Of a stretch of DNA of 64,000 bases, positions 5,735 to 52,987 are shown piece by piece (the stretch's first letter is position 1; each line of letters starts with the position of its first letter). The position numbers and the translations under genes were made by a program. Source of the stretch: an uncultured Gammaproteobacteria bacterium (GTDB taxonomy: Bacteria > Patescibacteriota > Patescibacteriia > CAZGFX01); the NCBI GenBank assembly GCA_964524845.1, contig CAZGFX010000002.1, positions 6,440-70,439 of the forward strand, read 5' to 3'. The notes beneath the pieces are model-generated. The model worked only from the letters and a program-made list of their open reading frames with translations. It was not told the DNA's origin and searched no databases.

Positions 5735-5801
5735 TAATTGATATCAAACACACAAAATCAGCTGAAATAGGCTGTTTTTTTGTATTCGTGTGTACAAAAC
5801 C

Positions 5802-5830
5802 TTGACAGGATTGTCTCCGTGTGTTATCAT
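5802..5830 (+). promoter_or_regulatory. Sigma70-type promoter, cassette copy 1: TTGACA 5802-5807, 17-bp spacer, TGtTATCAT extended -10 ending at 5830
   Basis: Exact consensus -35, TGn extended -10 and 17-bp spacer. AAGGAG RBS lies 8 nt before the ATG at 5877. Confidence 0.65.
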
Positions 5831-5876
5831 TCTATGATAAAAACTAAAATAAAACAAATGAGAAAAGGAGAGAATT

Positions 5877-6986: not shown

Positions 6987-7004
6987 TAAGTTTCAAAATT
7001 TAAC

Positions 7005-7047
7005 ACCCCTTGCTTGTATTAAACAGGCAAGGGGATTTTTTTATAAA
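7005..7047 (+). terminator. Rho-independent terminator: ccccttgcttg / caggcaagggg stem, 7-nt loop, T7 run
   Basis: 11-bp stem with one G-U pair followed by TTTTTTT, immediately after the stop of the 5877-6986 gene. Confidence 0.8.
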
Positions 7048-7092
7048 ACCAGCTGAAATAAGCTGTTTTTTGTATTTGTATACACAAAAACC

Positions 7093-7121
7093 TTGACAGG
7101 ACTGTCCTTATGTGCTATTAT
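7093..7121 (+). promoter_or_regulatory. Sigma70-type promoter, cassette copy 2: TTGACA 7093-7098, 17-bp spacer, TGcTATTAT
   Basis: Consensus -35, extended -10 and 17-bp spacer. AAGGAG RBS before the ATG at 7171. Confidence 0.65.
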
Positions 7122-7170
7122 TTAATGATAAAAACATAAACAAACAAAAACAAAAAATAAGGAGAAAATC

Positions 7171-7854
7171 ATGGAAAAGATGTCATTTGATGAATTAGTA
7201 GGAAAAATTGGTTTTGGGCCAGCTGTTGTCATTTGTTACAAAAAACTTACAAAAGAGTTTTTTGAAAGACAGACATTTAAAGAATGGAAAACAATTTACG
7301 AAAATGCTCTATCCGGAAGCGATTTGAAAAAACTCGTATTAGAAGAGAAGATGTTAGGTCTTGCAAAAACGTTTGACGAATGTGTGTATATTCTCAAAAA
7401 CATTTCATCCGGAGATGAGTTTAGAAGACTTGTTCTTCAAAAAATGTTAGAACTTGCAAAGACCCCTCATGAGTGTATATTTGTTTATAATAACACGCCA
7501 GAAATAAGTATGTTTAAGAGGCCTGTTATTGAAAAAATATCAGAGATTGCAGAAACGATTGACGCATGGGTATTTGTTTATAACAATTCCTCATTCATAA
7601 TCGAGTTTAAAAGTATGGGTGAGCTTAAAAAACTTGCTTTAGAGAAGATTATGCTTGCAAAGACGTTTGACGAGTGGAAGTATGTTTACAAAAATTCCCA
7701 ATTAGGAAGTGAATTAAAAAGTCTCGCAATTCAGAAAATGTTAGAGTTTGATAATACATTTCATGAATGGATGTCTGTTTACAATGACTATTCATACGGA
7801 AGCGATTTGAAAGAACTCGTTCTCCAGAAGATGTCTGAATTCATTGAAGTATAA
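7171..7854 (+). CDS. Repeat protein, paralog B: same leader, about 6 degenerate 31-aa repeats
   Basis: N-terminus MEKMSFDELVGKIGFGPAVVICYKKLTKEFFERQTFKEW aligns to the N-termini of paralogs A and C. Repeats of type TFDEWKYVYKNSQLGSELKSLAIQKMLEF. Confidence 0.7.
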   Translation: MEKMSFDELVGKIGFGPAVVICYKKLTKEFFERQTFKEWKTIYENALSGSDLKKLVLEEKMLGLAKTFDECVYILKNISSGDEFRRLVLQKMLELAKTPHECIFVYNNTPEISMFKRPVIEKISEIAETIDAWVFVYNNSSFIIEFKSMGELKKLALEKIMLAKTFDEWKYVYKNSQLGSELKSLAIQKMLEFDNTFHEWMSVYNDYSYGSDLKELVLQKMSEFIEV

Positions 7855-7860
7855 TATAAA

Positions 7861-7898
7861 CCCCTTGCTTGTATTAAACAGGCAAGGGGATTTTTTTA
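7861..7898 (+). terminator. Rho-independent terminator, same hairpin as at 7005
   Basis: ccccttgcttgtattaaacaggcaaggggattttttt. Confidence 0.8.
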
Positions 7899-7943
7899 TA
7901 AAATCAGCTTAAATAGGCTGTTTTTGTGTTCTCATAAGTTGTG

Positions 7944-7972
7944 TTGACAAAATCTTTTACACATGTTATCAT
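7944..7972 (+). promoter_or_regulatory. Sigma70-type promoter, cassette copy 3: TTGACA 7944-7949, 17-bp spacer, TGtTATCAT
   Basis: Consensus elements. This is the more diverged cassette copy. Confidence 0.6.
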
Positions 7973-8025
7973 TTTACGATAAAAACAAATAAGTAAATAA
8001 ACAGACAAAAAAGAAGAAGAAAATT

Positions 8026-8268
8026 ATGAGAAAGATATCATTTGGTGAATCAGTAGAAAAACTCGGGTTTGGGCTAGCTGTTGTCACTCATTATGAAGAA
8101 CTTTCAAAAGAGTTTTTTGAAAAATTAACATTTGATGAATGGGTGTGGGTTTACAACCAATCTTTATCAGGAAGCGATTTACAAAAACTTGCCTTAAAGA
8201 AGATTTCGGAAATTTCAAAGAAGATCGACGAATTGATACCTATTCATAAAAACGTTCTATCTGATTAA
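8026..8268 (+). CDS. Repeat protein, paralog C: leader plus a single repeat unit (80 aa)
   Basis: MRKISFGESVEKLGFGLAVVTHYEELSKEFFEKLTFDEWVWVYNQSLSGSDLQKLALKKISE matches the leader and first repeat of paralogs A and B. Confidence 0.6.
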   Translation: MRKISFGESVEKLGFGLAVVTHYEELSKEFFEKLTFDEWVWVYNQSLSGSDLQKLALKKISEISKKIDELIPIHKNVLSD

Positions 8269-8273
8269 TAAAC

Positions 8274-8312
8274 ACCCCTTGCTTGTATTAAACAGGCAAG
8301 GGGATTTTTTTA
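8274..8312 (+). terminator. Rho-independent terminator, third copy of the same hairpin
   Basis: ccccttgcttgtattaaacaggcaaggggattttttt. Confidence 0.8.
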
Positions 8313-8361
8313 TAAAACCAGCTGAAATAAGCTGTTTTTTTGTATTCATGTGTATAAAACC

Positions 8362-8390
8362 TTGACAGAATTGTCTCCGTGTGCTATCAT
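8362..8390 (+). promoter_or_regulatory. Sigma70-type promoter, cassette copy 4: TTGACA 8362-8367, 17-bp spacer, TGcTATCAT
   Basis: Consensus elements. AAGGAGAAGG RBS before the ATG at 8437. Confidence 0.65.
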
Positions 8391-8436
8391 TTAATGATAA
8401 AAATATAAACAAAAAACAAAAAATAAGGAGAAGGTC

Positions 8437-9018
8437 ATGGAAAACTCAAAATCTAACTATGAATTCATCAAACCGATGTCTGTTGTTGAACAGGTGCGAA
8501 TTTTGAAAAATCTGTTTCCAGATGAGCTCGGTGAAAAGGTTTTCGATGAAGATATTGCGACAAACCTGATTTCCATAGGAGCGGGAAGATGTTTCGCAAT
8601 TCCAAAATGGCAACTTTTCGGAAAAAATTATTATGAAGCGTGCGAGAAGGTTCTTCGTGCACTTTCAAATAGCAGAAATGGCAAATTTCGTAACAAAATC
8701 ATCATCGATACAGAAAATCTTCGTGAATCAAAAGAGAAAATTTCAGGGCTTAAAAAAAACGCCGATGCACAAAAAGGAAATGATATTCTCGTTATTTCGG
8801 GACAATTGACAGATAATGAGTTAAGACTAGGAATATTTGAGACTGCGATAATACTCATCGCACACTATAAAAATATTTATAAATATAACAATTTAAAGAT
8901 CGACTGTGCTGGAGATGAGTCTACTTGTTTTGGCGGCGCTTTCTTTAATATGCCCGAATTCAGCATTGTGGGGGACGAGCTATGGTTGTCTGATTATTCT
9001 AAGTTTTATGCATTTTAG
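8437..9018 (+). CDS. Hypothetical protein (193 aa), unrelated to the repeat paralogs but driven by the same promoter cassette
   Basis: ORF with strong promoter and RBS. No recognisable motif. Confidence 0.55.
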   Translation: MENSKSNYEFIKPMSVVEQVRILKNLFPDELGEKVFDEDIATNLISIGAGRCFAIPKWQLFGKNYYEACEKVLRALSNSRNGKFRNKIIIDTENLRESKEKISGLKKNADAQKGNDILVISGQLTDNELRLGIFETAIILIAHYKNIYKYNNLKIDCAGDESTCFGGAFFNMPEFSIVGDELWLSDYSKFYAF

Positions 9019-26143: not shown

Positions 26144-27367
26144 ATGTATTATAGACGATCCCATGCAGCATACCCAGTACTTGGTGTTGATATACACGAT
26201 GTCGGATATGCGGATATACTTGCTGTTATTGATGATTATATTGCCTCAAAAAAACAAGGAATCATAGCCACAGTAAACAATGAAATCGTTTTGTGGGCGA
26301 TACGGACTCCTGCTCTTTTTCGCGTACTCAAAAATACCGTGCTCAATGTTCCTGATAGCATAGGCATGTTGATAGGGACTAGATTTTTTGGCTTTCGACT
26401 TAAAAACGGAAGAGTGATTGGAGTCGAGTTAGTTAATAAAATAGCCGAGCACTCTAGAAATAGAAATTATCGAATATTTTTACTTGGAGGATCATCTGAT
26501 GAAAAAATAGGACAAAGAGCTGCCGATGCATTAAAGAAAAGATATAATGCGACAATTGTCGGCACGGATCCGGGACCAGCTCTTTCTGTTGATGGCACAA
26601 TGGATACATCTTATGATTTTGATAAGTTAAAAAATTTAATAGAATCGTCTCGCGCAAATATTCTTCTCGCTGCTTTTGGAGGAGGGCCAAAACAAGAGTT
26701 GTGGCTATCAGATCACATAAAAGATTTTCCAGGAATCGCAATAGGAATAGGAGTTGGTGGAACTTTTGATTATCTATCAGGAAAGGTTCTAAGTGTTCCG
26801 GTTTTTATTAGAAAAATAGGCTTTGAATGGTTATGGAGGCTTTGTACGCAAAAAAAACGCATAAAAAGAGTGTTTAACGCAATATTTATATTTACTACAC
26901 ATCTTGTTTGGTGGAAAATAAGATCAGTTTTATTTTTCAGAAAAGGAATTATAGGCGTTATTGTAAACGATGATAAAAAAATCCTTTTGTGTAAACAGGC
27001 TCGCCCGCCTTTTTGGTGGCAATTAGTGCAAGGAGGGACAGAGGAAGGAGAGGATGTTTCGAGTACTATTCAAAGGGAAATATACGAGGAAATTGGAGTA
27101 AGAGATCAGTGTATTATAAAACAAATGGCCCATGAGGAATTTGCATATTCTTTTGGAATATACGGACGCGCACGATATGGATATCGTGGCCAGAAGAAAC
27201 AAGCTGTTTTGCTACAATGTCCAAATACTGTTAAAATAAGGCTTGATGAGCGTATATTTTCTAATTATATATGGGCATCATATCAACAGGCAATAGACAA
27301 AATTGGTGGAAAAAGAGGGAATGAAGAAAAAAGTATTCGATTGTTTAAAGATTACTTTAATTTATAA
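26144..27367 (+). CDS. WecB/TagA/CpsF-family glycosyltransferase fused to a C-terminal NUDIX hydrolase domain
   Basis: N-terminal 250 aa match the TagA family (FLLGGS..., AAFGGGPKQELW, GIGVGGTFDYLSG, GFEWLWRL). The C-terminus carries a Nudix box GGTEEGEDVSSTIQREIYEEIGV (Gx5Ex7REUxEExGU). Confidence 0.75.
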   Translation: MYYRRSHAAYPVLGVDIHDVGYADILAVIDDYIASKKQGIIATVNNEIVLWAIRTPALFRVLKNTVLNVPDSIGMLIGTRFFGFRLKNGRVIGVELVNKIAEHSRNRNYRIFLLGGSSDEKIGQRAADALKKRYNATIVGTDPGPALSVDGTMDTSYDFDKLKNLIESSRANILLAAFGGGPKQELWLSDHIKDFPGIAIGIGVGGTFDYLSGKVLSVPVFIRKIGFEWLWRLCTQKKRIKRVFNAIFIFTTHLVWWKIRSVLFFRKGIIGVIVNDDKKILLCKQARPPFWWQLVQGGTEEGEDVSSTIQREIYEEIGVRDQCIIKQMAHEEFAYSFGIYGRARYGYRGQKKQAVLLQCPNTVKIRLDERIFSNYIWASYQQAIDKIGGKRGNEEKSIRLFKDYFNL

Positions 27368-28834: not shown

Positions 28835-30058
28835 ATGAATATAAGAAGATACATAATAACTTTAGTATCCATACTTACCTTGATAGGTGTTTTTTATGGT
28901 GGTGTCATGAAGGCTGAAACAATTGATGAATTAAATCAACGAATCAAAGAGACTAGAAAACAAGTCGAATCACTTTCTAAAAAAGCAAGTGAGCTTCAGG
29001 AAAAAATTAATACTGCACGTGGAGCAAAAACAACACTTGAGTCAGAATTAAAAATAGTAAGTCAGAAGATAGAAAAAATAAACATAACCCTTCAATACAC
29101 ATCACTTGATATTGAACGTACACAACTCGAGATAGATCAGATTGATGCAGACGTCATGTTAAAAGAAAAGCAAATTATTGATCAAAAGGAAATCATAAAA
29201 AACATGCTTAGGACTATGTATAGGCAAAAAAGCTCCAATCAGATAGAGCTTCTTCTTATGAGTAATTCTCTGGCTTCTTTTTTTACACAGTTGACACAGC
29301 TCGGACAAATAGAAGCTGTTATTACAGGAAAGGTACAAACACTAAATCAGATAAAGGATGAGCTTTCGTTACAAAAAGAAGAAAAACAGAAAAAGAAGGA
29401 CTCTCTTGAGTTATTAAAACAACAACTTGTTGTTGAGGCTGAACTTCTAGATGATACACAGATACAAAAGAATTATATTTTAGCCGAAACAAAAAACAAC
29501 GAAAAACGCTTTCAACAATTGTACGCACAAGCGATCCAAGAACGAATAAACGCAGATGCAAATATTTCAAAGGCAGAAACACTGATTAGAAAAAAGCTTC
29601 AAGAAGAAGGTCTAAAAAAACTTGGTGGAGACGGAAGTTTTGGATGGCCTGTTACATCTAGATATATAACAGCCAAGTTTCATGATCCGTCTTATCCTTT
29701 TAAAAGCATATTTCAGCATTCGGGAGTTGATATAAAAGCATCTCAAGGAAGTGCTATATATGCAACACAGGACGGTTATGTAGCAAAAACAGTAAATGGC
29801 GGTCTTTATGGCTATAGTTATATACTTTTGGTTCATGGAAATGAAAAATCAACCGTATATGGACACGTGAGTAAAATATTTGTTAGTGAGGATACTTATG
29901 TTGTTCGTGGTCAAAAAATAGCTTTATCTGGCGGTACTCCCGGTACTGCAGGAGCTGGAAGGTATACAACCGGCCCTCATCTTCATTTTGAAATACGAAA
30001 CAAAGGAATACCAATTGACCCTCTTCAGTACTTATCATCTCCTATTTTGTTGGATTAA
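28835..30058 (+). CDS. M23 (LytM) family peptidase with an N-terminal signal/TM segment and a long coiled coil (EnvC-like)
   Basis: C-terminal HSGVDIKA...GPHLHFEIR M23 metal-binding motifs. About 230 aa of heptad-repeat sequence precede them. Confidence 0.85.
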   Translation: MNIRRYIITLVSILTLIGVFYGGVMKAETIDELNQRIKETRKQVESLSKKASELQEKINTARGAKTTLESELKIVSQKIEKINITLQYTSLDIERTQLEIDQIDADVMLKEKQIIDQKEIIKNMLRTMYRQKSSNQIELLLMSNSLASFFTQLTQLGQIEAVITGKVQTLNQIKDELSLQKEEKQKKKDSLELLKQQLVVEAELLDDTQIQKNYILAETKNNEKRFQQLYAQAIQERINADANISKAETLIRKKLQEEGLKKLGGDGSFGWPVTSRYITAKFHDPSYPFKSIFQHSGVDIKASQGSAIYATQDGYVAKTVNGGLYGYSYILLVHGNEKSTVYGHVSKIFVSEDTYVVRGQKIALSGGTPGTAGAGRYTTGPHLHFEIRNKGIPIDPLQYLSSPILLD

Positions 30059-30161: not shown

Positions 30162-33100
30162 ATGTTACAGCGCTTATTTAAAAAACATTTTTTTACCGGC
30201 GTATGTTTTGTTATAGCCGGAATATTTTTTGGCCTTACTGCGCATGCGGTGGAAGTAGATTTTACCGTAGCACAGCAGGCAGGATTCGGTTCTTCTACTC
30301 TTGAAGATATTGTTATTAATACAATAAAAATAATTCTTGGTTTTCTAGGTCTTGCGGCAGTTCTTATCACTCTATATGGAGGATATATATGGATGTCGTC
30401 AGGAGGAAATTTAGAAAAAATTACAAAAGCAAAGAAGACATTAAGCGCTGGCGTTGTTGGTTTGGCGATTGTGCTCAGTGCGTTTTCAATCGCTCATTTT
30501 ATTTTTGGTATTTTTGATGACGTAATGGGAGGTGGAGGAGGAATTGTAAACGAAGATACTGGTGGTGGAGATGGTGGTTGTATTGGATCGGCTTGTTTAG
30601 CTGGTGGCTCAGGAGGATTTTCCGTTTCTTCTGTTAATCCAGGAAACGGTGCGACTGCAATAGCACTTTGTAGGAAGGTGCAAGCTGTTTTTAATTCAAA
30701 TGTTGATTCCGCTTCTGTTAATTCGAATAATTTTAAAATATCATATAACAATGAGGGTTCCCAGTCTGTTATAAATGGTAATTATGCAGTAAGCGCAAAC
30801 GGTTTAACTTTTAGGCATACCGAATTGTTTCCGGCAAATAAAATAATAAATGGATATATTGCGGACGGAACCGGTTCGATAAGAAGTACAGCAGGAATCG
30901 AGATAGCGAGCAACAGAGGAAGAAACTGGTCTTTCACAACAGGAACGGAGGTTGATTCTGTTTTACCAACGGTCGATGATGTTTTTCCGTCTAGCGGCAT
31001 GAAAGATGTATGCAGAAACACAACAATAGAAATAGTATTTAGTGAAATAATGGATATTTCAACTCTTAATTACGATACAATTAAATTATTTGATGATAAG
31101 GGTAATCAAATTAATCTTTCTGGTCTGAAAATAACATCTACATTCGATTCTGTTATTATTCGTCCAGCAAGCACTCTTGAGGAAAACAAGGTGTATCGAG
31201 TTGTCGCGAGTGGAAATATAAGCGACGCGTGCGATAATAAACTTGATGGAAACAAAAATAACACAGCAGAAGGATCTCCAACTGATGATTTTGTGTGGAC
31301 ATTTACAACAGGAACAGAGATGAACTGTAGTCCGATAATTACAAACATGTCGATACAATCTGGTGCTTATGATAGCCAAACATACGAAGTTGTAATTACA
31401 GGAAAATATCTTGGTATTGCCGGTGATACTCAATTTGGAAATCTAGAATCAGGAGACAATACTTTTTGTTCATTATTTGGAACATGCGAGGATGAGGAGG
31501 ATGGTTTTGTTGTAAAAAGCAGAACTAATAACAGATGGATAACGAGAGTTCCTGTTGGTTCTGTGACAAGTCCATTAAAAATAGTTAAAGAAGAGGGTGG
31601 CCAGAGCAATGCACAATCTTTTACTGTTTTAAGTCCTTATCTGTCAGGGGTCGAAGAAAAAAGTGGAAGAGCTGGTAATTTCTTCACTTTGTATGGTACA
31701 AATTTTGGATCTGAGCCAGGAAAGGTTTCGTTTGTTTATAATGATGAAGAAGGAAATCAAAAAAGAATAGAAGCGGCTCAACTATGTAAAGAAAATGCTT
31801 GGCACGAGGATTATATTGTAGCGAACGTACCAGATCTACCAGATGCGGAATATCAAATACAAATTGAAACTGCCACCGGATTACCAAGTAATATAATTGA
31901 TTTTACAATTGATAGTACAATTCCTTCAAATCCGGGACTTTGCGGAGCAGTGCCTGTTTGTACAAACTCAGAGATGTTTCCTGTACAAACAATAGGTGTT
32001 AATCTTGGTGCCGTACCAGGAAAACTTGAGTTTACACTTGGAACAATAGAAATTCCTCCTGCCGCACAAGTAGACTGGAAGGATAATGGAATAGATTTTC
32101 GAGTAAAAGATGTAAAAAATGGAATGCATAAAATCCGCGCAACACGAATTGAAGGGAGTGGTGATGATAAGAAAGAGTTGCGTTCAAACCCTGTGTTTAT
32201 AGAAAAGCCATGCCCACCACCAAGTCCATTAAAACCTGTAATAAAATCAATTTCGCCTGATAATGGATCTAGTAAAGAAGGTACCAACACAATAATTACA
32301 ATCCTTGGGGATACTTTGGTGTATTCTGGATTGGGCGGAAAACAATCTATGTATAATGGTACTGTTGCAAAAAACTTTGGGGACAAAGGAGGTGTTGTGT
32401 ATTTTTGTCCTACAAATTTAACATTGCCAATATTACCGGGCGATGACAGGTGTGTTTCTGTATCTAAGGGAGAGTGTTTCGAATGGATAGATAACGAGAT
32501 TACTGTTACTACACCAACTCTTGCAGAAGGTGTGTATTCGGTTTATGTAAGTAAAGAAAATATTTATACAAGTGATATAAATCCTGTTGCAAAATTTACA
32601 AGTAATTCCATAGTGCGTCCTGGACTGTGTACGATTTCACCAAAAAACGGACCGGATAATACAAAAGTTACACTTACAGGCAAAACCCTTGGCGATGAAA
32701 GGGCAGATGTTGATGGTAAGATAGAATATTATAAAAATAGCTCATTTGGATTTTCAGATAATATAGAATCATGGACAAACAAGAGTATAACTCATACATC
32801 TGTATCTAATTTACCAGAACAACAATCTCTTGTTCGTGCTTGGATTACAATTCCTGATCGCGGGCAAGGTGGGGTTTTGACTTCGGGAACATATCAATCT
32901 AATTCAAAATCTTTTTATTCAAACCCTATTATTAAAGAAATATCTCCATCGAACGGACCGGTTGGTACGTATGTGAGTATTTTTGGAAAAAACTTTGGCA
33001 ATGTTCCGGGCAGAGTAATATTTAAAAAAGGTTCTGATGTGGTTGATGCAGGTGGTATAAATTGTCCTATGACATGGAAAGATAACTATGTGATAGTTTC

Positions 33101-36100
33101 TGTGCCCAGTGGTTTAGAAACAGAAGAATATTCAATTCATGTTATTCCTTATCTTCCAGGAGGAGTTGAATCTAATGGTAAGGAGTTTACGGTAAACAAA
33201 GAACCTCTTGGACCTCAGTTGTGTCCTATTTTGGAGACAGCACAACCATTCAAATTGAATTCAAAATATTTATTTATAGGTGATAATTTTGGAACGACTC
33301 CAGCGCTAGATAATAGTAGGTTGTCATGGAGTGGAATTGGCGGAGTTATTACAACCACACCAACAACAACTCCTCAATGGTCAAACACACAAGGAGAGTT
33401 TGCTGTGCCAAATAAAGAGGGTGCTGGAAGAGTAAAAATGCTTAGGACAACTAAGTTTTATACAGGTAGAAAATGCACGATTCCAACTTTTGGAGGAGTT
33501 TGTTTTACTCATTACGAGGATACTTTTGAGGATAAAACAATTGAGAGTAATTTAGTGCCTTTTGAGATAGGCGAGGGACCTAGAATTATAGACAATGATT
33601 TAACGTGCGATCCTAAAAATCCAAAATCTCTTTCTCCTGCTCCAAAAAGCGGAGAGACTGTGTGTAAGCAACGCTCAATAAATCTTTCTTTTGATAAACC
33701 AATTGATCCGGAGACTTTAAACTCAGCAAATATAATTATTAATAAGAGAAAAGATAATGGCGTTGGTTATATAACACTTACTAACACTTCTGATAAGAAG
33801 GAGTATAGTATCATACCAACAGGAAATGGATTTAGTGTACTTTTGTTTAATGATAATGGTCAGCACGAGATATCAACAACTTCATATGAAATTATTGTAG
33901 GAAACTTTGATTCAGAAGGCATTAAATCTTCAAACGGTTTGAAGATGCAACCAATTACAATATCAGGATCCTCAATTATTGATGGGTTTAAATGGAATTT
34001 TAATGGAAATGGTGAAAACTGTGTATTTCCTGCAAACGCTCAGTATTCCATAGCAAACACCGATCCATTAAGGCTTACTCGGGCTCATAATACAGAAACA
34101 CTATCAACCCAGATACTGGATCCAAATACATGTAATGCATTTGTTTTTGGCGGTGATACGTGGACACTTACTCCAAATACACAAACTCCGGCTACATTTG
34201 CGACACTCGGTGGTACAACAACAAAGAATATTACAGGTACGAGCGATGGAGTTGGTATACTTTCCGCTTCAACAAATATTGAAGGAAGAGTATTTACCGA
34301 CTCTAATAAAATAGAGGTGCTTTATGAAGACGCTCGGCCAAAAGTCGTCGTGCGTAATTCATGTAATGAGAAAGATCCTCAAGATTATTCTCCATCTCCA
34401 AAAAACGGAGCTAACAATGTGTGTACAACGTCAGGAATATATATTGAATATAATAAATTTCTTGATCCAAACTCAATAACCACTGGTGCTATAAATATAA
34501 TGATTGGAGGTAAAGAAGTTGAGTTGCCAGAGTCGCCCAAGACACCAAAAAATGAAGTCCCAGATGGACTAATACAAGAAACAGAAGGTAAACCAATAAT
34601 AACACTTATTTCGGGCGATATTGGTAATGAAAATGGTATTATAGGATTTAAGATTAATATTGGTACTCTTGTTGTTGGTTCTGAATATGAAATATCAGTA
34701 AATGGAGTTGTTGGTGAAAATGGTTTTCCAGCAGAAGAATATTCATGGTCTTTTGAGACAGGAAGTAGTGAATGTACAATAGATCAAGAAAATACAGTTG
34801 TTCGAATGACAGCTAAAGACCCAATCCGTCTTACAACATATGATCCTTATTTATTGAGCGCAAACTTATATAATAAAAATGATTTGTGTCAGCCAATTAA
34901 CGTACAAAAAACAGATACATGGTCAACAGGAAATATTTCTATTGCTAAAATAGAAAATACAACAAATCTAGTTGCCGTTGCTGAAACAGGTAATACAACA
35001 GTAACTGTACAAACGACTGCTCAAGGATTATCTTTTACCGACACAAACGATGTAAAAGTTAATATTATAAAATCATGTAAAGATCCTGAAGCCGTTAATT
35101 ATAATCCAAACGCAACGGTTGTAAACAATGCGACTTGTAAATATATCACAGTCACGGAAATTACTCCAACAAGCGGTCGTGCAGTAGGTGATTCAAATGA
35201 CACCGTGGTTACAATTACCGGGTCAAACTTCATGGATGCTATTAATGGTCCTGCTGGATCAGGAGCTGTATATTTTTGTCCTACTACAGGATATGAAAAC
35301 ATAGAAAAAGATTGTGAAAAAAGCACAATAACTTCTTGTGGAACATGGTATTCTGATTCGGTCACAATAGACGTTCCTAAACTGACACTCAATAAACAAT
35401 ATGAGGTACGTGTTGTTGATGCAAATGGAAAAATTGATCGTCGTTCTACAAATTCAACTGTATTTTTTACAGCAACAAATGATTTACAACCAGGTCTTTG
35501 TTCTCTAGATCCAATAAGTGGAACCATAGGACAAAAAACTATTATTAATGGAAGAAATCTAGGAAATGTTAAAAATAGCAGCAGTGTTTTATTTAAGACG
35601 ACACCAGCAACTATTCTGTCTTCTTCTGATTGGTCAAACGAAAAAGTTTCAGCATCCGTTCCACAAGTAGATGAGACAGTAAATGTTTCGGCTAAAATTC
35701 AATTTGGTACAACGACATTTAAAAATTCAAACCCATTGCTATTCTTCGCGCCACCTGTAATCACAGGAATATCTCCTGAAAAAGGAAACAATAATGCATT
35801 TATTACAATAAGCGGAAAAAATTTTGGCAACATACCTGGAATCGTATATTTTAAATCAGGAAACACTGATATTACAGCTGAGTTTCCTACACAATGTAAT
35901 ACCAACTGGACAAATAAAACAATTGTTGTGAAAGTGCCGTCAGGACTTTCTACAAATGCGAAAGTGCGTGTTATACCAGGGTATCAGACAAGATTAGTAT
36001 CGAATGAGAAGGATTTTGTTTATGATTCTAAATTATTGGTTGGTCCGCAATTGTGTCAATTAACAAGTCAATATATTTCTCCGGAAACAGACATTACTTT

Positions 36101-38789
36101 CAATGGAGAAAATTTTACAGATAATCCTGGTGGAAAAATGATTTGGAGCGGTATAAACAAAGAAACTTCTTACGATGGAGAAGGGTGGACACCGACTCAG
36201 GTGGTATTCACATCTCCTGATTCGCAAGGCGAGGGGTTTGTGCGTTTAGAAAAAAAAGTTATTATCAATACAGGAAAATTTACGTGCCAAGGGTTTGAGT
36301 TTGGAAACGTATGTCTAGGAATAAGATCGGATAAACAAGATATTACACTTGTAAGTAATGAAATTCCATTTGTTTTGGCAAACGCTCCGGAAGTTGTTGA
36401 ACGTACTCAGTGTGATGGGATAAATCCGATTTCTCCTGCTCCTACAAAAGATTCAAATAATGTTTGTAGAAATACAGCACTGTATCTTGAATTTAATCAA
36501 AAGATAGAATCATCATCGTTAAATTATGATAATATAGTTATAACAAGAAGCGGAGGACCTTTATCAAAGGTAAATGAGTCTGGTGATGTTTTGTTGGCAG
36601 GAAAGAGTTTGGCAAGATCTCAGACAGTAAATGAACCACCTGATAACGACGAACCAACAGACCTAACAAGTTTTGATTACACTATTGTTCCTATGCAAAA
36701 AGGTTTCTTCATTAGATTTAATAATCTTTTGTCACCAAGTAGATTATATACTGTAAGAGTTAGTAATATTATTAATTCTTTTGGTGTTCCTATGTCAACT
36801 CCATATGAGTGGAGTTTTACGACACAGGCACAATCATGCACCCCAACAAAAGGGACACTAAGTATAATAGCAAGATATCCTAGAGTTGATGGTGTATTAA
36901 GCGCTGTTGATAACGATAGGCCAATTACTCTTTCAGAAAATTATTTATCAAGAGAATTATATGGAAACTTCATTGATGGGCAGTGTATACCAGTAAGTCT
37001 TGGAGATGACGATGTTGTATGGACATCCGGAGATCAAAAAGTAGCAAAAATTAACTCTGTTTCTAAGATTTATTCAATATATGGAATTAGTTATGGAACG
37101 ACATTTGTTAATGCATCATATGCATCTTTCACGGCAAAGGAAAATGTTAATGTAAATATTTCCGGAGATCTTATAACATTCCATTATCCTTATTTTAATC
37201 AGGAAGATGTGTGTAGAAACACAAACATTGCTATTACATTTAAAGAAAATGTCGCCTTGCCACTTGATGAAACTTCTATAATACTAGAATCTTGTGGATC
37301 AGAAAGTATATTCAATCAAGAAGGCAAAGATAATACATGTGTTAATCCAGAAGTTGTTGTTGGTGACTTAATATCACAGGGTAACAGAGTGTTTTTTACA
37401 CCTTCTGATAATTTGAAACAAAACACAATTTATCATGCTCGTTCAAATTCAATAACACTAGAAACAGGTATTACATCAAAAGAAGCTGATTGGTGGTTTA
37501 AAACCGTGAATACAAACGGTCTGTGTACTCTTGAAACACTTAGACTTACACCTCTTGATTATGAATTCACTGGATTACAATCAGTAAATTTCCTTGCAGA
37601 GGCGCTTGATGGAGCTGGAAATTCGATTCAATCCGATTTCTCTTGGAAGATTGACGACCTTTCTTTAATTGAAAGTGTATATATCATGAACGGATCTAAT
37701 ATAATAAAACCCGTTGGAAATAAGAATGGTGTTACCACAGTATCTGTGACAGCAGATAGTGGTATTGCCGGAAACAAAACAGCTTCTACAAATATAACTG
37801 TTAATACATGTCAAAAACCATGGTCAGGAATTGATGGGAAGGGTGAGCTTTATGACAGCGAAAACCAATTTTCTCTATCATATTGTCTCGATGGAGGAAA
37901 TCCTAATATTAGAATTTCTAAATCTCCTCAAATTATAAATACACCCGATCCTTCAGGATTAAAATCAGATATGTTGGCACAGTATTTCATGACTGTGGAT
38001 CCAAACACCACCCCTGTATTAACAGATCAGTGCGGAGACGGAGTTATCAAATATTCGGAACAATGTGATTGCGGAACAAAAAACATATGTATACCAGCAT
38101 CTCTTGGAAATAATTCTTGTGTAGGAAAAACATCAAAAAATAATATTGAAGTTGTATATTGTACAAATCAGTGTAAGTTAAATATAAATTCTTGTTTCTC
38201 TTGGGATACGTCAGAAAAAACATCTAATATAAAAAACACAAATGGTATATTAACACTCGACAACCCTTCTATAAACGGAAGCATTGAATATATAATCAAT
38301 TCAAATATATCAAATCATCCGTGGACAGGAATATTCTGGAATGGAAATATACCTAAGTTCGGAGAAACATCTTCTCAAAAATCTTCTATCACAATGTCAT
38401 ATAAAGCAAACAACTCTTGTAAGATTGATACAATGTCAGGAGGAGCCGAGTCTGTATTACTTGATCAGAATATAAAAACAGTTGGTTTTTCGGATAACAC
38501 GAAGGGATCTTGTCTATATATCAAATTATCACTAGCTCCCGTGACATCTAATCAGTGGGTTCCAAATACAAATTATACGAAAAACACAAAATTGAAAGCA
38601 AATAATCAAATATATAATGTTGCGATATCAGGGTATAAATCAGGATCAAGCATAGACAATGATGTTACAACTGGAAAATTAGAAAACTTAACATCTGAAG
38701 TATCGCCATCGGTAAATTCAATTATTATAAGCGGTGGAGAAAGTATTAATATAGCAAATGATTTTGATAAACAAAATTTAGCCGAATAA
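30162..38789 (+). CDS. Giant (2875 aa) surface protein. Signal peptide plus a VirB2/TrbC-pilin-like two-helix N-terminal anchor, a Gly-rich linker, at least five Big_5-like and many IPT/TIG-like Ig-fold domains, and a C-terminal Cys-rich CGDG...CDCG module.
   Basis: A single uninterrupted ORF. Recurring domain-boundary motifs (PGLC/PQLC followed by ISPxxGxxGTxVTIxGxNFG). Five SPxPxxGxxxVCxNTxIxxxF...LN units. The C-terminal DQCGDGVIKYSEQCDCG resembles the Myxococcus-type cysteine-rich repeat. Confidence 0.85.
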   Translation: MLQRLFKKHFFTGVCFVIAGIFFGLTAHAVEVDFTVAQQAGFGSSTLEDIVINTIKIILGFLGLAAVLITLYGGYIWMSSGGNLEKITKAKKTLSAGVVGLAIVLSAFSIAHFIFGIFDDVMGGGGGIVNEDTGGGDGGCIGSACLAGGSGGFSVSSVNPGNGATAIALCRKVQAVFNSNVDSASVNSNNFKISYNNEGSQSVINGNYAVSANGLTFRHTELFPANKIINGYIADGTGSIRSTAGIEIASNRGRNWSFTTGTEVDSVLPTVDDVFPSSGMKDVCRNTTIEIVFSEIMDISTLNYDTIKLFDDKGNQINLSGLKITSTFDSVIIRPASTLEENKVYRVVASGNISDACDNKLDGNKNNTAEGSPTDDFVWTFTTGTEMNCSPIITNMSIQSGAYDSQTYEVVITGKYLGIAGDTQFGNLESGDNTFCSLFGTCEDEEDGFVVKSRTNNRWITRVPVGSVTSPLKIVKEEGGQSNAQSFTVLSPYLSGVEEKSGRAGNFFTLYGTNFGSEPGKVSFVYNDEEGNQKRIEAAQLCKENAWHEDYIVANVPDLPDAEYQIQIETATGLPSNIIDFTIDSTIPSNPGLCGAVPVCTNSEMFPVQTIGVNLGAVPGKLEFTLGTIEIPPAAQVDWKDNGIDFRVKDVKNGMHKIRATRIEGSGDDKKELRSNPVFIEKPCPPPSPLKPVIKSISPDNGSSKEGTNTIITILGDTLVYSGLGGKQSMYNGTVAKNFGDKGGVVYFCPTNLTLPILPGDDRCVSVSKGECFEWIDNEITVTTPTLAEGVYSVYVSKENIYTSDINPVAKFTSNSIVRPGLCTISPKNGPDNTKVTLTGKTLGDERADVDGKIEYYKNSSFGFSDNIESWTNKSITHTSVSNLPEQQSLVRAWITIPDRGQGGVLTSGTYQSNSKSFYSNPIIKEISPSNGPVGTYVSIFGKNFGNVPGRVIFKKGSDVVDAGGINCPMTWKDNYVIVSVPSGLETEEYSIHVIPYLPGGVESNGKEFTVNKEPLGPQLCPILETAQPFKLNSKYLFIGDNFGTTPALDNSRLSWSGIGGVITTTPTTTPQWSNTQGEFAVPNKEGAGRVKMLRTTKFYTGRKCTIPTFGGVCFTHYEDTFEDKTIESNLVPFEIGEGPRIIDNDLTCDPKNPKSLSPAPKSGETVCKQRSINLSFDKPIDPETLNSANIIINKRKDNGVGYITLTNTSDKKEYSIIPTGNGFSVLLFNDNGQHEISTTSYEIIVGNFDSEGIKSSNGLKMQPITISGSSIIDGFKWNFNGNGENCVFPANAQYSIANTDPLRLTRAHNTETLSTQILDPNTCNAFVFGGDTWTLTPNTQTPATFATLGGTTTKNITGTSDGVGILSASTNIEGRVFTDSNKIEVLYEDARPKVVVRNSCNEKDPQDYSPSPKNGANNVCTTSGIYIEYNKFLDPNSITTGAINIMIGGKEVELPESPKTPKNEVPDGLIQETEGKPIITLISGDIGNENGIIGFKINIGTLVVGSEYEISVNGVVGENGFPAEEYSWSFETGSSECTIDQENTVVRMTAKDPIRLTTYDPYLLSANLYNKNDLCQPINVQKTDTWSTGNISIAKIENTTNLVAVAETGNTTVTVQTTAQGLSFTDTNDVKVNIIKSCKDPEAVNYNPNATVVNNATCKYITVTEITPTSGRAVGDSNDTVVTITGSNFMDAINGPAGSGAVYFCPTTGYENIEKDCEKSTITSCGTWYSDSVTIDVPKLTLNKQYEVRVVDANGKIDRRSTNSTVFFTATNDLQPGLCSLDPISGTIGQKTIINGRNLGNVKNSSSVLFKTTPATILSSSDWSNEKVSASVPQVDETVNVSAKIQFGTTTFKNSNPLLFFAPPVITGISPEKGNNNAFITISGKNFGNIPGIVYFKSGNTDITAEFPTQCNTNWTNKTIVVKVPSGLSTNAKVRVIPGYQTRLVSNEKDFVYDSKLLVGPQLCQLTSQYISPETDITFNGENFTDNPGGKMIWSGINKETSYDGEGWTPTQVVFTSPDSQGEGFVRLEKKVIINTGKFTCQGFEFGNVCLGIRSDKQDITLVSNEIPFVLANAPEVVERTQCDGINPISPAPTKDSNNVCRNTALYLEFNQKIESSSLNYDNIVITRSGGPLSKVNESGDVLLAGKSLARSQTVNEPPDNDEPTDLTSFDYTIVPMQKGFFIRFNNLLSPSRLYTVRVSNIINSFGVPMSTPYEWSFTTQAQSCTPTKGTLSIIARYPRVDGVLSAVDNDRPITLSENYLSRELYGNFIDGQCIPVSLGDDDVVWTSGDQKVAKINSVSKIYSIYGISYGTTFVNASYASFTAKENVNVNISGDLITFHYPYFNQEDVCRNTNIAITFKENVALPLDETSIILESCGSESIFNQEGKDNTCVNPEVVVGDLISQGNRVFFTPSDNLKQNTIYHARSNSITLETGITSKEADWWFKTVNTNGLCTLETLRLTPLDYEFTGLQSVNFLAEALDGAGNSIQSDFSWKIDDLSLIESVYIMNGSNIIKPVGNKNGVTTVSVTADSGIAGNKTASTNITVNTCQKPWSGIDGKGELYDSENQFSLSYCLDGGNPNIRISKSPQIINTPDPSGLKSDMLAQYFMTVDPNTTPVLTDQCGDGVIKYSEQCDCGTKNICIPASLGNNSCVGKTSKNNIEVVYCTNQCKLNINSCFSWDTSEKTSNIKNTNGILTLDNPSINGSIEYIINSNISNHPWTGIFWNGNIPKFGETSSQKSSITMSYKANNSCKIDTMSGGAESVLLDQNIKTVGFSDNTKGSCLYIKLSLAPVTSNQWVPNTNYTKNTKLKANNQIYNVAISGYKSGSSIDNDVTTGKLENLTSEVSPSVNSIIISGGESINIANDFDKQNLAE

Positions 38790-40627: not shown

Positions 40628-41292
40628 CTATTATTATTCCGTCACTACTTAGAAAAACAATAAAGGAAATTGAAAGAGATATTTCAAAAGTTCCTAATTT
40701 TGTAAATATAATACAAATTGATATTGCTGATGGATTGTTTGTTCCTGATAAGTATTTGCATGATCCAAAAGAAATTAATAAACTTTGCGACGGAAAAGAG
40801 GTCGAAGTCCATCTAATGGTAAAAGATCCGGAAAAATATATTTCTGATTGGGGCACACTTAATACAATAAGGAGAATAATTTTTCATTATGAAGCAACAA
40901 ACGATCATATGAATGTAATTCGTCTTATAAGAGAGTATGGAAAAGAACCTGTAATTGCGCTTAATCCGGAAACTGATTATCGTTTATGTAAGCCAATTTT
41001 CCCATATTTAAAAGGTATTCAGATTATGTCTGTTTATCCCGGAGTACAAGGAAGACCTTTTGAATTATCCTCACCAGATCGTATCGACGAAGTACGAGGA
41101 TATTTAGAAGAACACGACTTGAGTGATAAAGTAGATATAAGTGTTGATGGTGGATTGACTCCTGATACTATTGGCTCGTGCGTTTTTTATGGTGCAAATC
41201 GTTTGTGTGTTGGATCATATCTTATGAACAGTGACGATTTTATTAGCTCATACAACAGACTTAACTCTGTTATTGAATCATCTCATACATAA
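40624..41292 (+). CDS. rpe: Ribulose-phosphate 3-epimerase
   Basis: IDIADGLFVP, HLMV, SVYPGVQGRPF and DISVDGGL correspond to conserved Rpe blocks. Its ATG overlaps the rpiB stop (ATGA). Confidence 0.8.
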   Translation: MTIIIPSLLRKTIKEIERDISKVPNFVNIIQIDIADGLFVPDKYLHDPKEINKLCDGKEVEVHLMVKDPEKYISDWGTLNTIRRIIFHYEATNDHMNVIRLIREYGKEPVIALNPETDYRLCKPIFPYLKGIQIMSVYPGVQGRPFELSSPDRIDEVRGYLEEHDLSDKVDISVDGGLTPDTIGSCVFYGANRLCVGSYLMNSDDFISSYNRLNSVIESSHT

Positions 41293-41305
41293 TATCAAGA
41301 ACATT

Positions 41306-42139
41306 ATGAATAAAAAAATTAAAAATATTTCAACTCTTGAAGAGAGTTCACGAGAAATAAGAAAATCAGTTATTAAATCTTTGGTTGAGGCAAAATCAGG
41401 ACATACGGCAGGATCTCTTGGTATGGCGGATGTATTTACTGTATTATATTTTAATATTCTTAATCATAATCCAAAAAAACCATCTTGGGAGGGTAGGGAT
41501 CGTTTAATTCTTTCGGCTGGACACATTTGTCCTGTTTGGTATGCAACACTTGCAGAAGCTGGATATTTTTCAAAAAACAAACTAATGACCTTGCGAAAAC
41601 TTGGTTCAGCTCTCCAAGGACATCCTCATACTTATATTAAATACGGAATTGAAAACACAGGTGGGCCACTCGGTCAAGGAATTTCATATGCCATAGGAAT
41701 TGCAAAAGCATTTAAAATGGATAAGAAAAAACAATTCGTTTATTGTATTATGAGCGATGGGGAACAAGAAGAAGGACAGGTGTGGGAGGCCGCTCAATTT
41801 GCTGCACACAATAAACTCGATAATCTTATCGCCATTATTGATCGAAACAATATACAAATTGACGGATATGTAAGTGATATTATGGGTATTGATCCTATTG
41901 CGGATAAGTATCGTGCTTTCGGATGGCACGTACAAGAAATAGATGGCCATTCCATAGAATCAATTATTGATGCTTGCAACAAAGCTAAATCAGTTCGCGC
42001 AGTACCATCTATAATTATTGCATACACGACTCCTGGAAAAGGCGTCGATTTTATGGAAGATGAATTTATATGGCATGGAAAACCACCTACTCCAGAAGAA
42101 GGTGAGAAGGCACTTGCACAACTTACTAAAAAGAAATAA
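41306..42139 (+). CDS. Transketolase, N-terminal (TPP-binding) subunit of a split enzyme
   Basis: GHTAGSLGMADVFTVLYF, GHPH and GPLGQG motifs. The ORF extends upstream to 41231, but the first ATG after the rpe stop is at 41306. Confidence 0.88.
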   Translation: MNKKIKNISTLEESSREIRKSVIKSLVEAKSGHTAGSLGMADVFTVLYFNILNHNPKKPSWEGRDRLILSAGHICPVWYATLAEAGYFSKNKLMTLRKLGSALQGHPHTYIKYGIENTGGPLGQGISYAIGIAKAFKMDKKKQFVYCIMSDGEQEEGQVWEAAQFAAHNKLDNLIAIIDRNNIQIDGYVSDIMGIDPIADKYRAFGWHVQEIDGHSIESIIDACNKAKSVRAVPSIIIAYTTPGKGVDFMEDEFIWHGKPPTPEEGEKALAQLTKKK

Positions 42140-42148
42140 TAAAAAACC

Positions 42149-43135
42149 ATGATAAATTTTAATAAAAAATTATACCTTGATCCCGCATTGCTTACTAATA
42201 AAATAAAGAAAATTCCAACTCGTGATGGATATGGTACTGGTGTTGTTGAGCTTGGAAAAAAGAATCGTTCAATTGTTGTTTTATGCTGCGATCTCACAGA
42301 GTCAACAAGAAATAATTGGTTTAAGGATAAATTTCCTGAAAGATTTGTAGAGGTGGGTGTTGCGGAACAAAACATGATGGGAATTGCGGCTGGAATGGCA
42401 ATGGTTGGAAAGGTGCCATTTGCTTCGTCGTATGCTGTGTTTTCTCCTGGAAGAAATTGGGATCAACTAAGAGTTTCTGTCTGTTATAATAATGCGAATG
42501 TCAAAATTGTAGGCGCTCATGCCGGAATATCAGTAGGCCCAGATGGAGCAACTCACCAAGCACTTGAAGACATAGCTATTGTTCGTGTATTGCCAAATAT
42601 GACCGTTGTTGTTCCGTGTGATGCGTTACAAGCTAATAAAGCGACAATTGCGATTGGTAAACACAAAGGACCAGCATATATAAGGCTTGGAAGAGAAAAA
42701 ACGCCTGTAATGACTACAAACAAAACACCTTTTACAATAGGTAAAATACAGGTTTTTTCAGAAGGGAAGGATGTTACAATTATAGCAATGGGCTCCATAT
42801 TATACAGCGTCATCGAAGCCGCTCAAATACTCTTAAAAAAAGGAATATCATCAACAATTGTAAATTGTCACACAATAAAGCCGCTTGATGAAAAAGGACT
42901 TTATTCAGCAATCAAAAAAACCAAAAGAGTTGTTACTGTTGAAGAGCACCAAATATATGGTGGGCTCGGTTCTGCAATTTCTGAGTTTTGTGCAAAAAAT
43001 ATTCCTATCCCAATTGAAATGGTTGGTGTGAATGATTTATTCGGAGAATCCGGAGAAGCAGAAGAACTTATAAAAAAATATAAAATAGACACAAACGATG
43101 TTGTGCGCGCTGTACATAATGTTTTAAAAAGATAA
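42149..43135 (+). CDS. Transketolase, C-terminal (pyrimidine-binding plus C-terminal domain) subunit
   Basis: GVAEQNMMGIAAGMA and GPDGATHQALEDIA motifs. Immediately follows the N-terminal subunit. Confidence 0.88.
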   Translation: MINFNKKLYLDPALLTNKIKKIPTRDGYGTGVVELGKKNRSIVVLCCDLTESTRNNWFKDKFPERFVEVGVAEQNMMGIAAGMAMVGKVPFASSYAVFSPGRNWDQLRVSVCYNNANVKIVGAHAGISVGPDGATHQALEDIAIVRVLPNMTVVVPCDALQANKATIAIGKHKGPAYIRLGREKTPVMTTNKTPFTIGKIQVFSEGKDVTIIAMGSILYSVIEAAQILLKKGISSTIVNCHTIKPLDEKGLYSAIKKTKRVVTVEEHQIYGGLGSAISEFCAKNIPIPIEMVGVNDLFGESGEAEELIKKYKIDTNDVVRAVHNVLKR

Positions 43136-52591: not shown

Positions 52592-52607
52592 TTTTTAGTA
52601 TCAAAAA

Positions 52608-52987
52608 GTCTTATTGAGATCATAAGCCGAATTCTGTTTCTGCCAAAGGCAGACAACGATCATCTCTCTAGTCCTTTCGTTACCAAAAGGATCAAGCAGC
52701 CAACCCATCCCGTCAAGCGGGATCTACTTGGCCTTGCACCCGATAGAAGTTTGCCTGTTTTTGCATGTCACCATGTAAACCGCGAGAATCTTACCTCTCG
52801 CATTTCACCCATCACCTATCGATTACTCTCAAGGCTGGTTTATTTTCTGTTGCACTTGTCCTATCCTACCAAAGTGGGACGGTGGGCGTTACCCATTATC
52901 ATGAATCAGAACTTCTTCTGAAACGGTGTTCGGACTTTCCTCTCTCCCGCCGATGGCGGGACAGCGATCGTTTTACCCAATAAGACC
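52608..52987 (-). ncRNA. rnpB: RNase P RNA, bacterial type A-like
   Basis: Minus-strand reading contains GAGAGGAAAGTCCGAACACC, GGTAACGCC, AGTGCAACAGAAA, GGGTGAAA...GGTAAGA, GCAAGGCCAA, GGTTGGCTGCTTGA and ACAGAATTCGGCTTAT in the canonical order. The ends pair as P1 (GTCTTATTG/CAATAAGAC). Confidence 0.85.

Follow-up and report, generated by a model that had tools for sequence, protein, structure and literature searches.

A giant immunoglobulin-domain protein headed by a VirB2-like pilin module, an architecture recurrent in Patescibacteria

The 64,000-nucleotide (nt) stretch of contig CAZGFX010000002.1 (assembly GCA_964524845.1) that was analysed, here called the window, carries at 30162-38789 on the forward strand an open reading frame (ORF) with an ATG start that encodes 2875 amino acids (aa) plus a stop codon. 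An earlier reading of the DNA letters (the sequence-only reading) had given this giant ORF identical coordinates, and its exact presence was confirmed. Assemblies in NCBI and Logan contain an identical copy of the protein; the longest contig with it measures 309,728 bp. The window has a G+C content of ~35% and densely packed housekeeping genes; it encodes a penicillin-binding protein (PBP) transpeptidase and a Mur ligase for cell-wall synthesis, enzymes of glycolysis and the pentose-phosphate pathway (among them a split transketolase), tRNA synthetases and RNase P RNA, a gene set that fits a Patescibacteria genome (CPR, the candidate phyla radiation). The giant gene is solitary, its neighbours being housekeeping genes, and a promoter and terminator scan scored no better than shuffled sequence. 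The protein consists of a leader, a hairpin of two hydrophobic helices, a Gly-rich linker, a long stalk of immunoglobulin (Ig)-like domains, a Cys-rich region and an orphan C-terminal region (Table 1).

The N-terminus was identified by family-level comparison, which supports a VirB2/TrbC-type pilin-like hairpin of the kind known from type IV secretion systems (T4SS). When the first 150 aa were scanned alone, residues 48-114 matched PF18895 (T4SS_pilin) with 28.7 bits (E 1.4e-6; gathering cut-off 26.6). On the full-length protein the score was 24.0 bits, under the cut-off. A weak match to NCBIfam NF045849, a pilin-like conjugal transfer protein of Mycoplasma integrative and conjugative elements, covered residues 48-117 (E 9.7e-5; 22 bits, cut-off 40). 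No match of PF04956 (TrbC/VirB2) to the giant protein was obtained at E ≤ 1; other PF18895 members are matched by PF04956 TrbC at E ~1e-4. By hhalign, the module profile aligned in register with Agrobacterium VirB2 (taken from PDB entry 8cue; 35% identity over 57 columns). In an alignment of the giant N-termini the mean column identity was 48%; Gly and Ala are invariant at some positions, Tyr, Trp and Lys nearly so, and a near-invariant Ala stands at the predicted AHA cleavage site.

The elements that the sequence-only reading had listed for this region were recovered. The leader, described there as a cleavable signal ending in AHA, has three Lys/Arg residues and a hydrophobic core, with AHA occupying residues 27-29, and its cleavage is predicted. 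Hydrophobic helix 1 is present, with a trivial slip in its transcription (IIKIILGF was written where the sequence reads TIKIILGF). The basic loop NLEKITKAKKT (four Lys), hydrophobic helix 2 (LSAGVVGLAIVLSAFSIAHFIFG) and the Gly-rich linker (15 Gly in the 36 residues 118-153) were all found as described. Residues 30-50 are acidic and contain no Lys or Arg. The charge pattern (leader +3, residues 30-50 acidic, four Lys in the turn region, linker acidic) matches the positive-inside rule for a protein with both ends outward (N-out/C-out), which would place the ~2700-aa Ig-domain region outside the cell. An N-out/C-out hairpin with a Lys-rich turn on the inside is the membrane topology of VirB2-type pilins.

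An AlphaFold2 model based on an 18-sequence alignment placed helices at residues 47-78 and 84-121, with block-mean pLDDT (predicted local distance difference test) values of 85-95 over residues 51-110 (10-residue blocks). The outcome was a confident helix-loop-helix and not a single transmembrane helix, and the model, hydropathy and charge agree on one layout of leader, two hydrophobic helices and short turn. The comparison with VirB2 and TraA structures that the sequence-only reading had proposed was answered in part: the helical hairpin was modelled, but Foldseek listed no pilin among 50 matches, its best small-hairpin match being ATP synthase subunit c, and a test of this kind does not discriminate. 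Since the fold alone is insufficient to prove pilin ancestry, most weight falls on the family-level evidence; the proposed pilin-like N-terminus accordingly holds by PF18895 (isolated module above cut-off), by the weak NF045849 match and by the weak in-register alignment with VirB2, while fold comparison cannot decide it.

Beyond the linker, tandem Ig-like domains of the sort that make up fibrillar-adhesin stalks were found. Pfam matched Big_5 in six stretches (146.8 bits) and TIG in five (80 bits), and profiles iterated on related proteins raised the count to six Big_5 and 11 TIG-like domains, in agreement with the at least five Big_5 and many IPT/TIG-like domains noted earlier. Of the Pfam models named in the sequence-only reading, T4SS_pilin, Big_5 and TIG were matched. 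An old internal duplication was recognised, in which residues 742-1195 resemble residues 1699-2129, and it includes the region of the four TIG/IPT domains at residues 1663-2039; no repeats were found at the DNA level. The 2722 residues after the linker contain 56 Cys and neither another hydrophobic span nor an LPXTG motif; LPXT[GAS] is absent from the whole protein. The Cys-rich CGDG...CDCG module noted earlier is present as CGDGVIKYSEQCDCG, which resembles the myxobacterial Cys-rich repeat TIGR02232 weakly (E 0.051, below cut-off).

Table 1. Layout of the giant protein and its coordinates in the window.
Feature	Position (nt)	Strand	Basis and remarks
Signal-peptide-like leader, aa 1-29	30162..30248	+	three K/R in the n-region, then a hydrophobic core; predicted cleavage after A29 of the AHA (27-29)
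Short acidic segment between leader and helix 1, aa 30-46	30249..30299	+	K/R-free; predicted extracellular
Hairpin helix 1, aa 47-78, conserved YGGYIWM at its end	30300..30395	+	AlphaFold2 model, 18-sequence alignment
Turn SSGGN, aa 79-83, and hairpin helix 2, aa 84-121	30396..30524	+	AlphaFold2 model, charge and hydropathy
Helix 2: basic EKITKAKK at start (predicted cytoplasmic face), then hydrophobic membrane span		+	within aa 84-121
PF18895 T4SS_pilin match, aa 48-114	30303..30503	+	Pfam scan
Gly-rich acidic linker, aa 122-153, GGGGG...GGGDGG...GGSGG	30525..30620	+	sequence composition
Two Big_5 Ig-like domains, aa 154-268 and 268-382	30621..31307	+	Pfam, iterated profiles
Seven TIG/IPT-like domains, aa 391-1103	31332..33470	+	iterated profiles
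Big_5 domains, aa 1153-1281 and 1406-1542, alternating with unassigned segments of ~100-125 aa	33618..35147	+	profiles; region closed by short Cys-flanked motif CKDPEAVNYNPNATVVNNATCKY
Four TIG/IPT domains, aa 1663-2039	35148..36278	+	iterated profiles
Big_5 domains, aa 2089-2229 and 2336-2457, alternating with unassigned domain-sized segments	36426..37841	+	profiles
Cys-rich region, aa 2561-2680	37842..38201	+	contains CGDGVIKYSEQCDCG, aa 2624-2638, nt 38031-38075
Orphan C-terminal region, aa 2681-2875, Asn/Ser/Thr-rich, putative distal tip	38202..38786	+	no family match

The sequence-only reading had set the protein apart from T4SS pilins, in which the module was said to be the whole protein; the uniqueness that this implied was not borne out in Patescibacteria, where mid-size and giant proteins that begin with the module number in the hundreds to thousands. 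With the full-length protein as query, at least 18 further giant proteins (1628-4068 aa) with PF18895 at the N-terminus were recovered, those with a named source coming from Patescibacteria, including Falkowbacteria. Nearly all carry Big_5 and/or TIG, and in several DUF4215 (PF13948) is annotated. The pilin module is N-terminal in all of them and is followed in nearly all by a Gly-rich or low-complexity linker; beyond the module, identity to the query was mostly 21-33% and extended over a small fraction of the length. A profile built from 18 giant N-termini was searched against 1.84 billion cluster representatives and matched 76,792 at E ≤ 1e-3 and 27,663 at E ≤ 1e-10, many of them 400-4700 aa long. 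Stand-alone proteins of 125-180 aa matched this profile at E ~1e-39 to 1e-41. Among the best 150 matches, 88 have one N-terminal module (11 shorter than 200 aa, 28 of 400-1000 aa, 28 longer than 2000 aa), and 67 of these 88 exceed 400 aa; the other 62 are polyproteins with 2-17 tandem modules. The polyproteins, with ~85-130 aa per module, are exemplified by P0075 (1775 aa, 17 modules), P0136 (1147 aa, 11 modules) and P0166 (966 aa, 10 modules), to which 59 others are to be added.

Species-representative genomes were scanned with a 5-sequence alignment as query, which gave 566 relatives and 79 loci; the genome of the window is not among them. A further four loci (L002-L005), retrieved through look-up of the exact protein, brought the set under analysis to 83; those that could be named belong to Magasanik-, Falkow-, Uhr-, Komeili-, Kerfeld- and Buchananbacteria. 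Many pilin-module loci (L013, L018, L019, L024-L027 and others) stem from third-party assemblies and are labelled "uncultured Gammaproteobacteria bacterium", a label that looks wrong for these contigs. The 83 loci contain 45 giant, 45 mid-size and 131 short module-bearing ORFs in three arrangements. At ~40 loci a mid-size (~540-1100 aa) and a giant protein (1600 to more than 3470 aa), both headed by the module, form a tandem pair (for example L010, 9848-20206, and L014, 6858-17767; also L002, L003, L005 and ~40 of L006-L084). Arrays of 4-10 short pilins of 110-170 aa occupy ~25 loci, and the third type comprises solitary giants like the gene in the window. Proteins of reverse architecture, in which 150-330 aa of N-terminal extension precede a C-terminal module (L056, 8558-9769, 403 aa; also L039, L057, L061, L064 and L071), were seen directly upstream of short-pilin arrays.

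One consensus, LGfLG..YGGFxWMTsGGNxEKixKAKK..IGL, is common to the giant (46), mid-size (45) and short (131) modules. In the core, giants are 51% identical to one another and 41% identical to short pilins. The modules of adjacent mid-size and giant proteins within one genome were 68% identical, against 49% between genomes, which suggests co-evolution or gene conversion. The fusion is therefore a common, conserved design in Patescibacteria and not a one-off, and the protein in the window is one divergent, solitary member of this recurrent architecture.

Taken together, the giant protein is probably a fibrillar, adhesin-like protein of the Patescibacteria cell surface that is tethered by its VirB2-like hairpin in N-out/C-out orientation. 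The bacterium probably belongs to the ABY1-type lineages (Magasanik-, Falkow-, Uhr-, Komeili-, Kerfeld- and Buchananbacteria). The Sec system would export the protein, and signal peptidase I would remove the leader after AHA. The hairpin would then sit in the cytoplasmic membrane with its ends outward and its Lys-rich turn towards the cytoplasm, and the Gly-rich linker and ~21-23 Ig-like domains (six Big_5, 11 TIG-like, 4-6 unassigned) would form a stalk whose extended length, roughly 80-100 nm, would suffice to pass through the wall and surface layer. The Cys-rich and orphan C-terminal regions would be the distal tip, most plausibly binding a host-cell or substrate surface. Because the same module recurs in short, mid-size and giant proteins, it may be regarded as a shared anchoring or assembly unit and not as a generic anchor. 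Its strong conservation, its identity with stand-alone pilins and its similarity within genomes argue that it does more than hold the protein in the bilayer, and it is probably recognised by a shared partner.

Several observations weigh against this assignment. The homology of PF18895 to true VirB2 is weak by sequence (hhalign probability 18%, E 0.0013), no pilin was found when PDB chain sequences were searched with the module profile by HMMER, and the Foldseek search of the hairpin model against the PDB gave nothing significant. Cleavage of the leader is predicted from the AxA motif only, and the figure for stalk length derives from the domain count only. At the other end of the protein, the last 195-320 aa had no Pfam or NCBIfam match and no homologue among 214 related proteins, and a single-sequence AlphaFold2 model of the last 321 aa was unusable (pLDDT 30); with the last 195 aa matching nothing, the adhesive role of the tip is pure inference.

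The closest known relatives are the VirB2-like pilins of Patescibacteria, which belong to the same family (PF18895) and share the consensus and the order of leader, helix, turn, basic stretch and helix. Those described are small proteins of ~110-170 aa that consist of the module alone and are often arrayed or encoded near virB4, whereas here the module is the first 4% of 2875 aa and the gene stands alone among housekeeping genes. Classical VirB2/TrbC/TraA pilins (PF04956; T- and F-pilus) likewise have a long cleavable leader, two hydrophobic helices and a short basic turn, and in the alignment with Agrobacterium VirB2 the WM motif that closes helix 1 is in register. They differ in that they lack a C-terminal extension, come from diderms with VirB1-11 encoded nearby, and are in some cases cyclised.

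In modular type IV pilins, such as Streptococcus sanguinis PilB and PilC, an adhesive module is grafted C-terminally onto an N-terminal polymerisation or anchor module. The design logic recalls that of the giant protein; fold and machinery are unrelated, however, the signal peptide is of class III and is processed by a prepilin peptidase, and the extensions comprise one or two domains, not ~22. Fibrillar adhesins of monoderms (LPXTG proteins with Ig repeats, SasG/Ebh-type; PrgB) resemble it in their long Ig stalk, distinct distal region and lack of an outer membrane around the cell, but are held by a C-terminal LPXTG/sortase anchor where the present protein has an N-terminal hairpin, and no recognised adhesive domain was found here. 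The RHS/YD-repeat toxins that appeared as non-pilin search matches share Big_5 and TIG stalk domains; they are without the PF18895 module, and the giant protein has neither RHS/YD repeats nor a toxin domain.

Linkage to a T4SS was sought at the locus and in the homologues. Pfam scans of 40 window ORFs detected no T4SS component, VirB4 and VirD4 included, as the sequence-only reading had noted. Neither a second pilin module in the six-frame translation of the 64-kb window nor a T4SS gene in the ~4.3 kb by which an overlapping Logan contig extends beyond the PBP gene (248-1990) on its upstream side was found. Across the 83 loci, whose modules are the closest to that of the giant protein, no VirB4-like ATPase lay within ~10 kb of any giant, mid-size or short module gene; large Walker-A ORFs, considered as VirB4 candidates, were identified as Mfd, SMC and DnaB only. 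Three giant homologues have a conserved context of LytR, LepB, HisS, YqeY, mid-size protein, giant protein, TSP3-like protein, YbeY, DgkA, FtsA and FtsZ, the pair thus lying between HisS/YqeY and YbeY/DgkA/FtsA/FtsZ. Polysaccharide or housekeeping genes also surround the short array L056 and L059, a short pilin that stands alone. No synteny was found between the neighbours of the gene in the window (WecG-NUDIX, GltX, M23 peptidase, RNase J-like and others) and the 83 loci.

Around L056 (contig SCUL01000002.1, 539855-560064), L004 and L059 the neighbours are polysaccharide genes (Wzx, Wzy-like), a gene for a solute-binding protein, or DnaB, SPFH and P-type ATPase genes, not T4SS genes; L056 lies ~180 kb from the giant fusion gene of L002 on the same contig. 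At L002 (3992-5325), ~5 kb upstream of the giant fusion gene, a bAvd-like gene and a reverse-transcriptase fragment were seen that may belong to a diversity-generating retroelement; none was found in the window. Such an element was rejected for the gene in the window, which takes part in no repeat pair.

At the genome level, Table S1 of PMC12102498 marks as VirB4-positive two class ABY1 assemblies, GCA_002773615.1 and GCA_004297205.1, that contain giant homologues. In a survey of ~3,030 assemblies most of the VirB4 homologues, 2,425 proteins in 2,407 assemblies, fell into one Patescibacteria-specific clade, and VirB2-like genes lay near virB4 in 1135 of 1948 assemblies (PMC12102498). On this literature, a T4SS is likely to be present in the same genomes as the giants; genetic linkage is absent for this subfamily.

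These data bear on the alternative that survives best, in which the giant is a modular minor pilin: the hairpin would be pulled from the membrane by the Patescibacteria T4SS (VirB4 and VirB3/VirB6-like proteins) and co-polymerise with short PF18895 pilins into a VirB2-like pilus, and the Ig stalk would decorate the shaft or tip of the filament as an adhesin, a parallel to the modular type IV pilins. Giant, mid-size and short modules carrying one motif speak for it, as do the modules within a genome being closer than orthologues between genomes, which is expected of one polymer or machine. The VirB4-positive genomes and the proximity of PF18895 genes to virB4 point the same way; a six-gene pilin array in the T4SS cluster of Southlakia epibionticum is essential (PMC10633639), and in surveys of the Patescibacteria T4SS no PrgB-type adhesin or homologue was detected (PMC12102498), which leaves the role of adhesin vacant.

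Both ends of VirB2-type pilins lie on the exterior of the F- and T-pilus structures, so that a C-terminal extension is sterically conceivable. This alternative is set back by the lack of VirB4-like ATPases near the 83 loci and of any T4SS gene in the window, by reviews that speak of a potential and not of a demonstrated T4SS pilus in Patescibacteria, and by the want of any precedent for a 2700-aa extension on a T4SS pilus subunit; it is considered possible, with the balance tilting clearly away from it. A wider form of the idea is held just as tentatively: the PF18895 hairpin may be a general polymerising module for surface display, with which short pilins would build a VirB2-like filament produced by the essential monoderm T4SS, the fusions, often encoded as a tandem pair, being its modular minor pilins or adhesins that select the host. 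If true, no T4SS pilus with modular pilins would have been known before, and the "missing adhesin" of the T4SS in Patescibacteria would have been found.

Alternatively, the hairpin might serve for export or sorting only and be cut off in or near the Gly-rich linker, the Ig fibre then being released or passed to the wall or S-layer in a sortase- or exosortase-like manner. A conserved module followed by a flexible Gly-rich linker in most giant homologues is compatible with this, and three homologous loci have a gene for signal peptidase I a few genes upstream, which is weak evidence, since its position is part of the synteny of housekeeping genes. Neither here nor in the homologues, however, is the gene linked to a dedicated processing enzyme, no conserved cleavage motif follows helix 2 beyond Gly runs, and the short stand-alone pilins also have the module but nothing that could be released, which makes this explanation unlikely. 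That an ordinary signal peptide and generic transmembrane helices resemble a pilin by chance, the PF18895 match being hydrophobic noise, would agree with the full-length score under the cut-off, the generic hairpins from the fold search and the low hhalign probability, but is very improbable and largely refuted at the level of sequence by conservation, profile matches and the shared consensus, given an isolated module above the Pfam cut-off, 27,663 representatives at E ≤ 1e-10 that include the 125-180-aa proteins, invariant Gly/Ala and near-invariant Tyr, Trp and Lys in excess of mere hydrophobicity, an independent weak match to a conjugation pilin-like NCBIfam family, and PF04956 matches of other members.

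The PF18895 family and its arrays are already known (PMC12102498, PMC10633639, PMC12857230), giant CPR surface proteins have been noted in general terms (PMC8080830), and public annotation already carries the domain combination (for example "IPT/TIG domain-containing protein"). The anchored fibre proposed here is apparently undescribed as a fusion: PMC12102498, PMC10633639, PMC12857230 and PMC11665869 make no mention of pilin-module fusions, and in the literature no paper was found on such fusions, on the pair of mid-size and giant proteins or on their separation from T4SS loci. Patescibacteria account for a large part of bacterial diversity, their cultivated members are attached to hosts, and host recognition is largely unexplained; the T4SS with VirB2-like arrays is essential in the one species tested, its function being called "completely unknown". 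Module-headed mid-size and giant Ig proteins are concrete candidates for host-binding structures, and whether the module is a membrane anchor or a pilus subunit is an either/or question that can be tested in Saccharibacteria systems. Counting PF18895 matches as "pilins" would take in many proteins that are not small pilus subunits.

Further features of the window were recorded. Directly upstream of the giant gene, at 28835-30058, lies an M23 peptidase with a long coiled-coil N-terminus, whose weak T2SSM and YscO matches are probably coiled-coil noise; this neighbour is not conserved in the 83 loci, and that it opens the wall for the giant protein is a speculative idea only. At 26144-27367 a WecG/TagA-family glycosyltransferase domain and, C-terminal to it, a NUDIX hydrolase domain are encoded as a fusion by one ORF. 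Three adjacent paralogues (5877-6986, 7171-7854 and 8026-8268) within 5754-8462 are made up of a 93-nt (31-aa) unit repeated in tandem, its motif being TFDEW..VY...SESELQKLAIQKMSE; after each gene comes a conserved 84-nt element of a hairpin plus T-run (6997-7080, 7852-7935 and 8266-8349), and their Pfam matches were limited to a faint DUF6898. The transketolase at 41231-43135 is split into separate N-terminal and C-terminal genes, the first of which, with a GTG start, overlaps the end of rpe; the gene as called on the Logan contig (L001, 21145-21978; window 41306-42139) has its start 75 nt further downstream, clear of rpe. No tRNA genes were found in the 64-kb window, and the only Rfam match was RNase P RNA class A (52607-52983 on the reverse strand, 204 bits).

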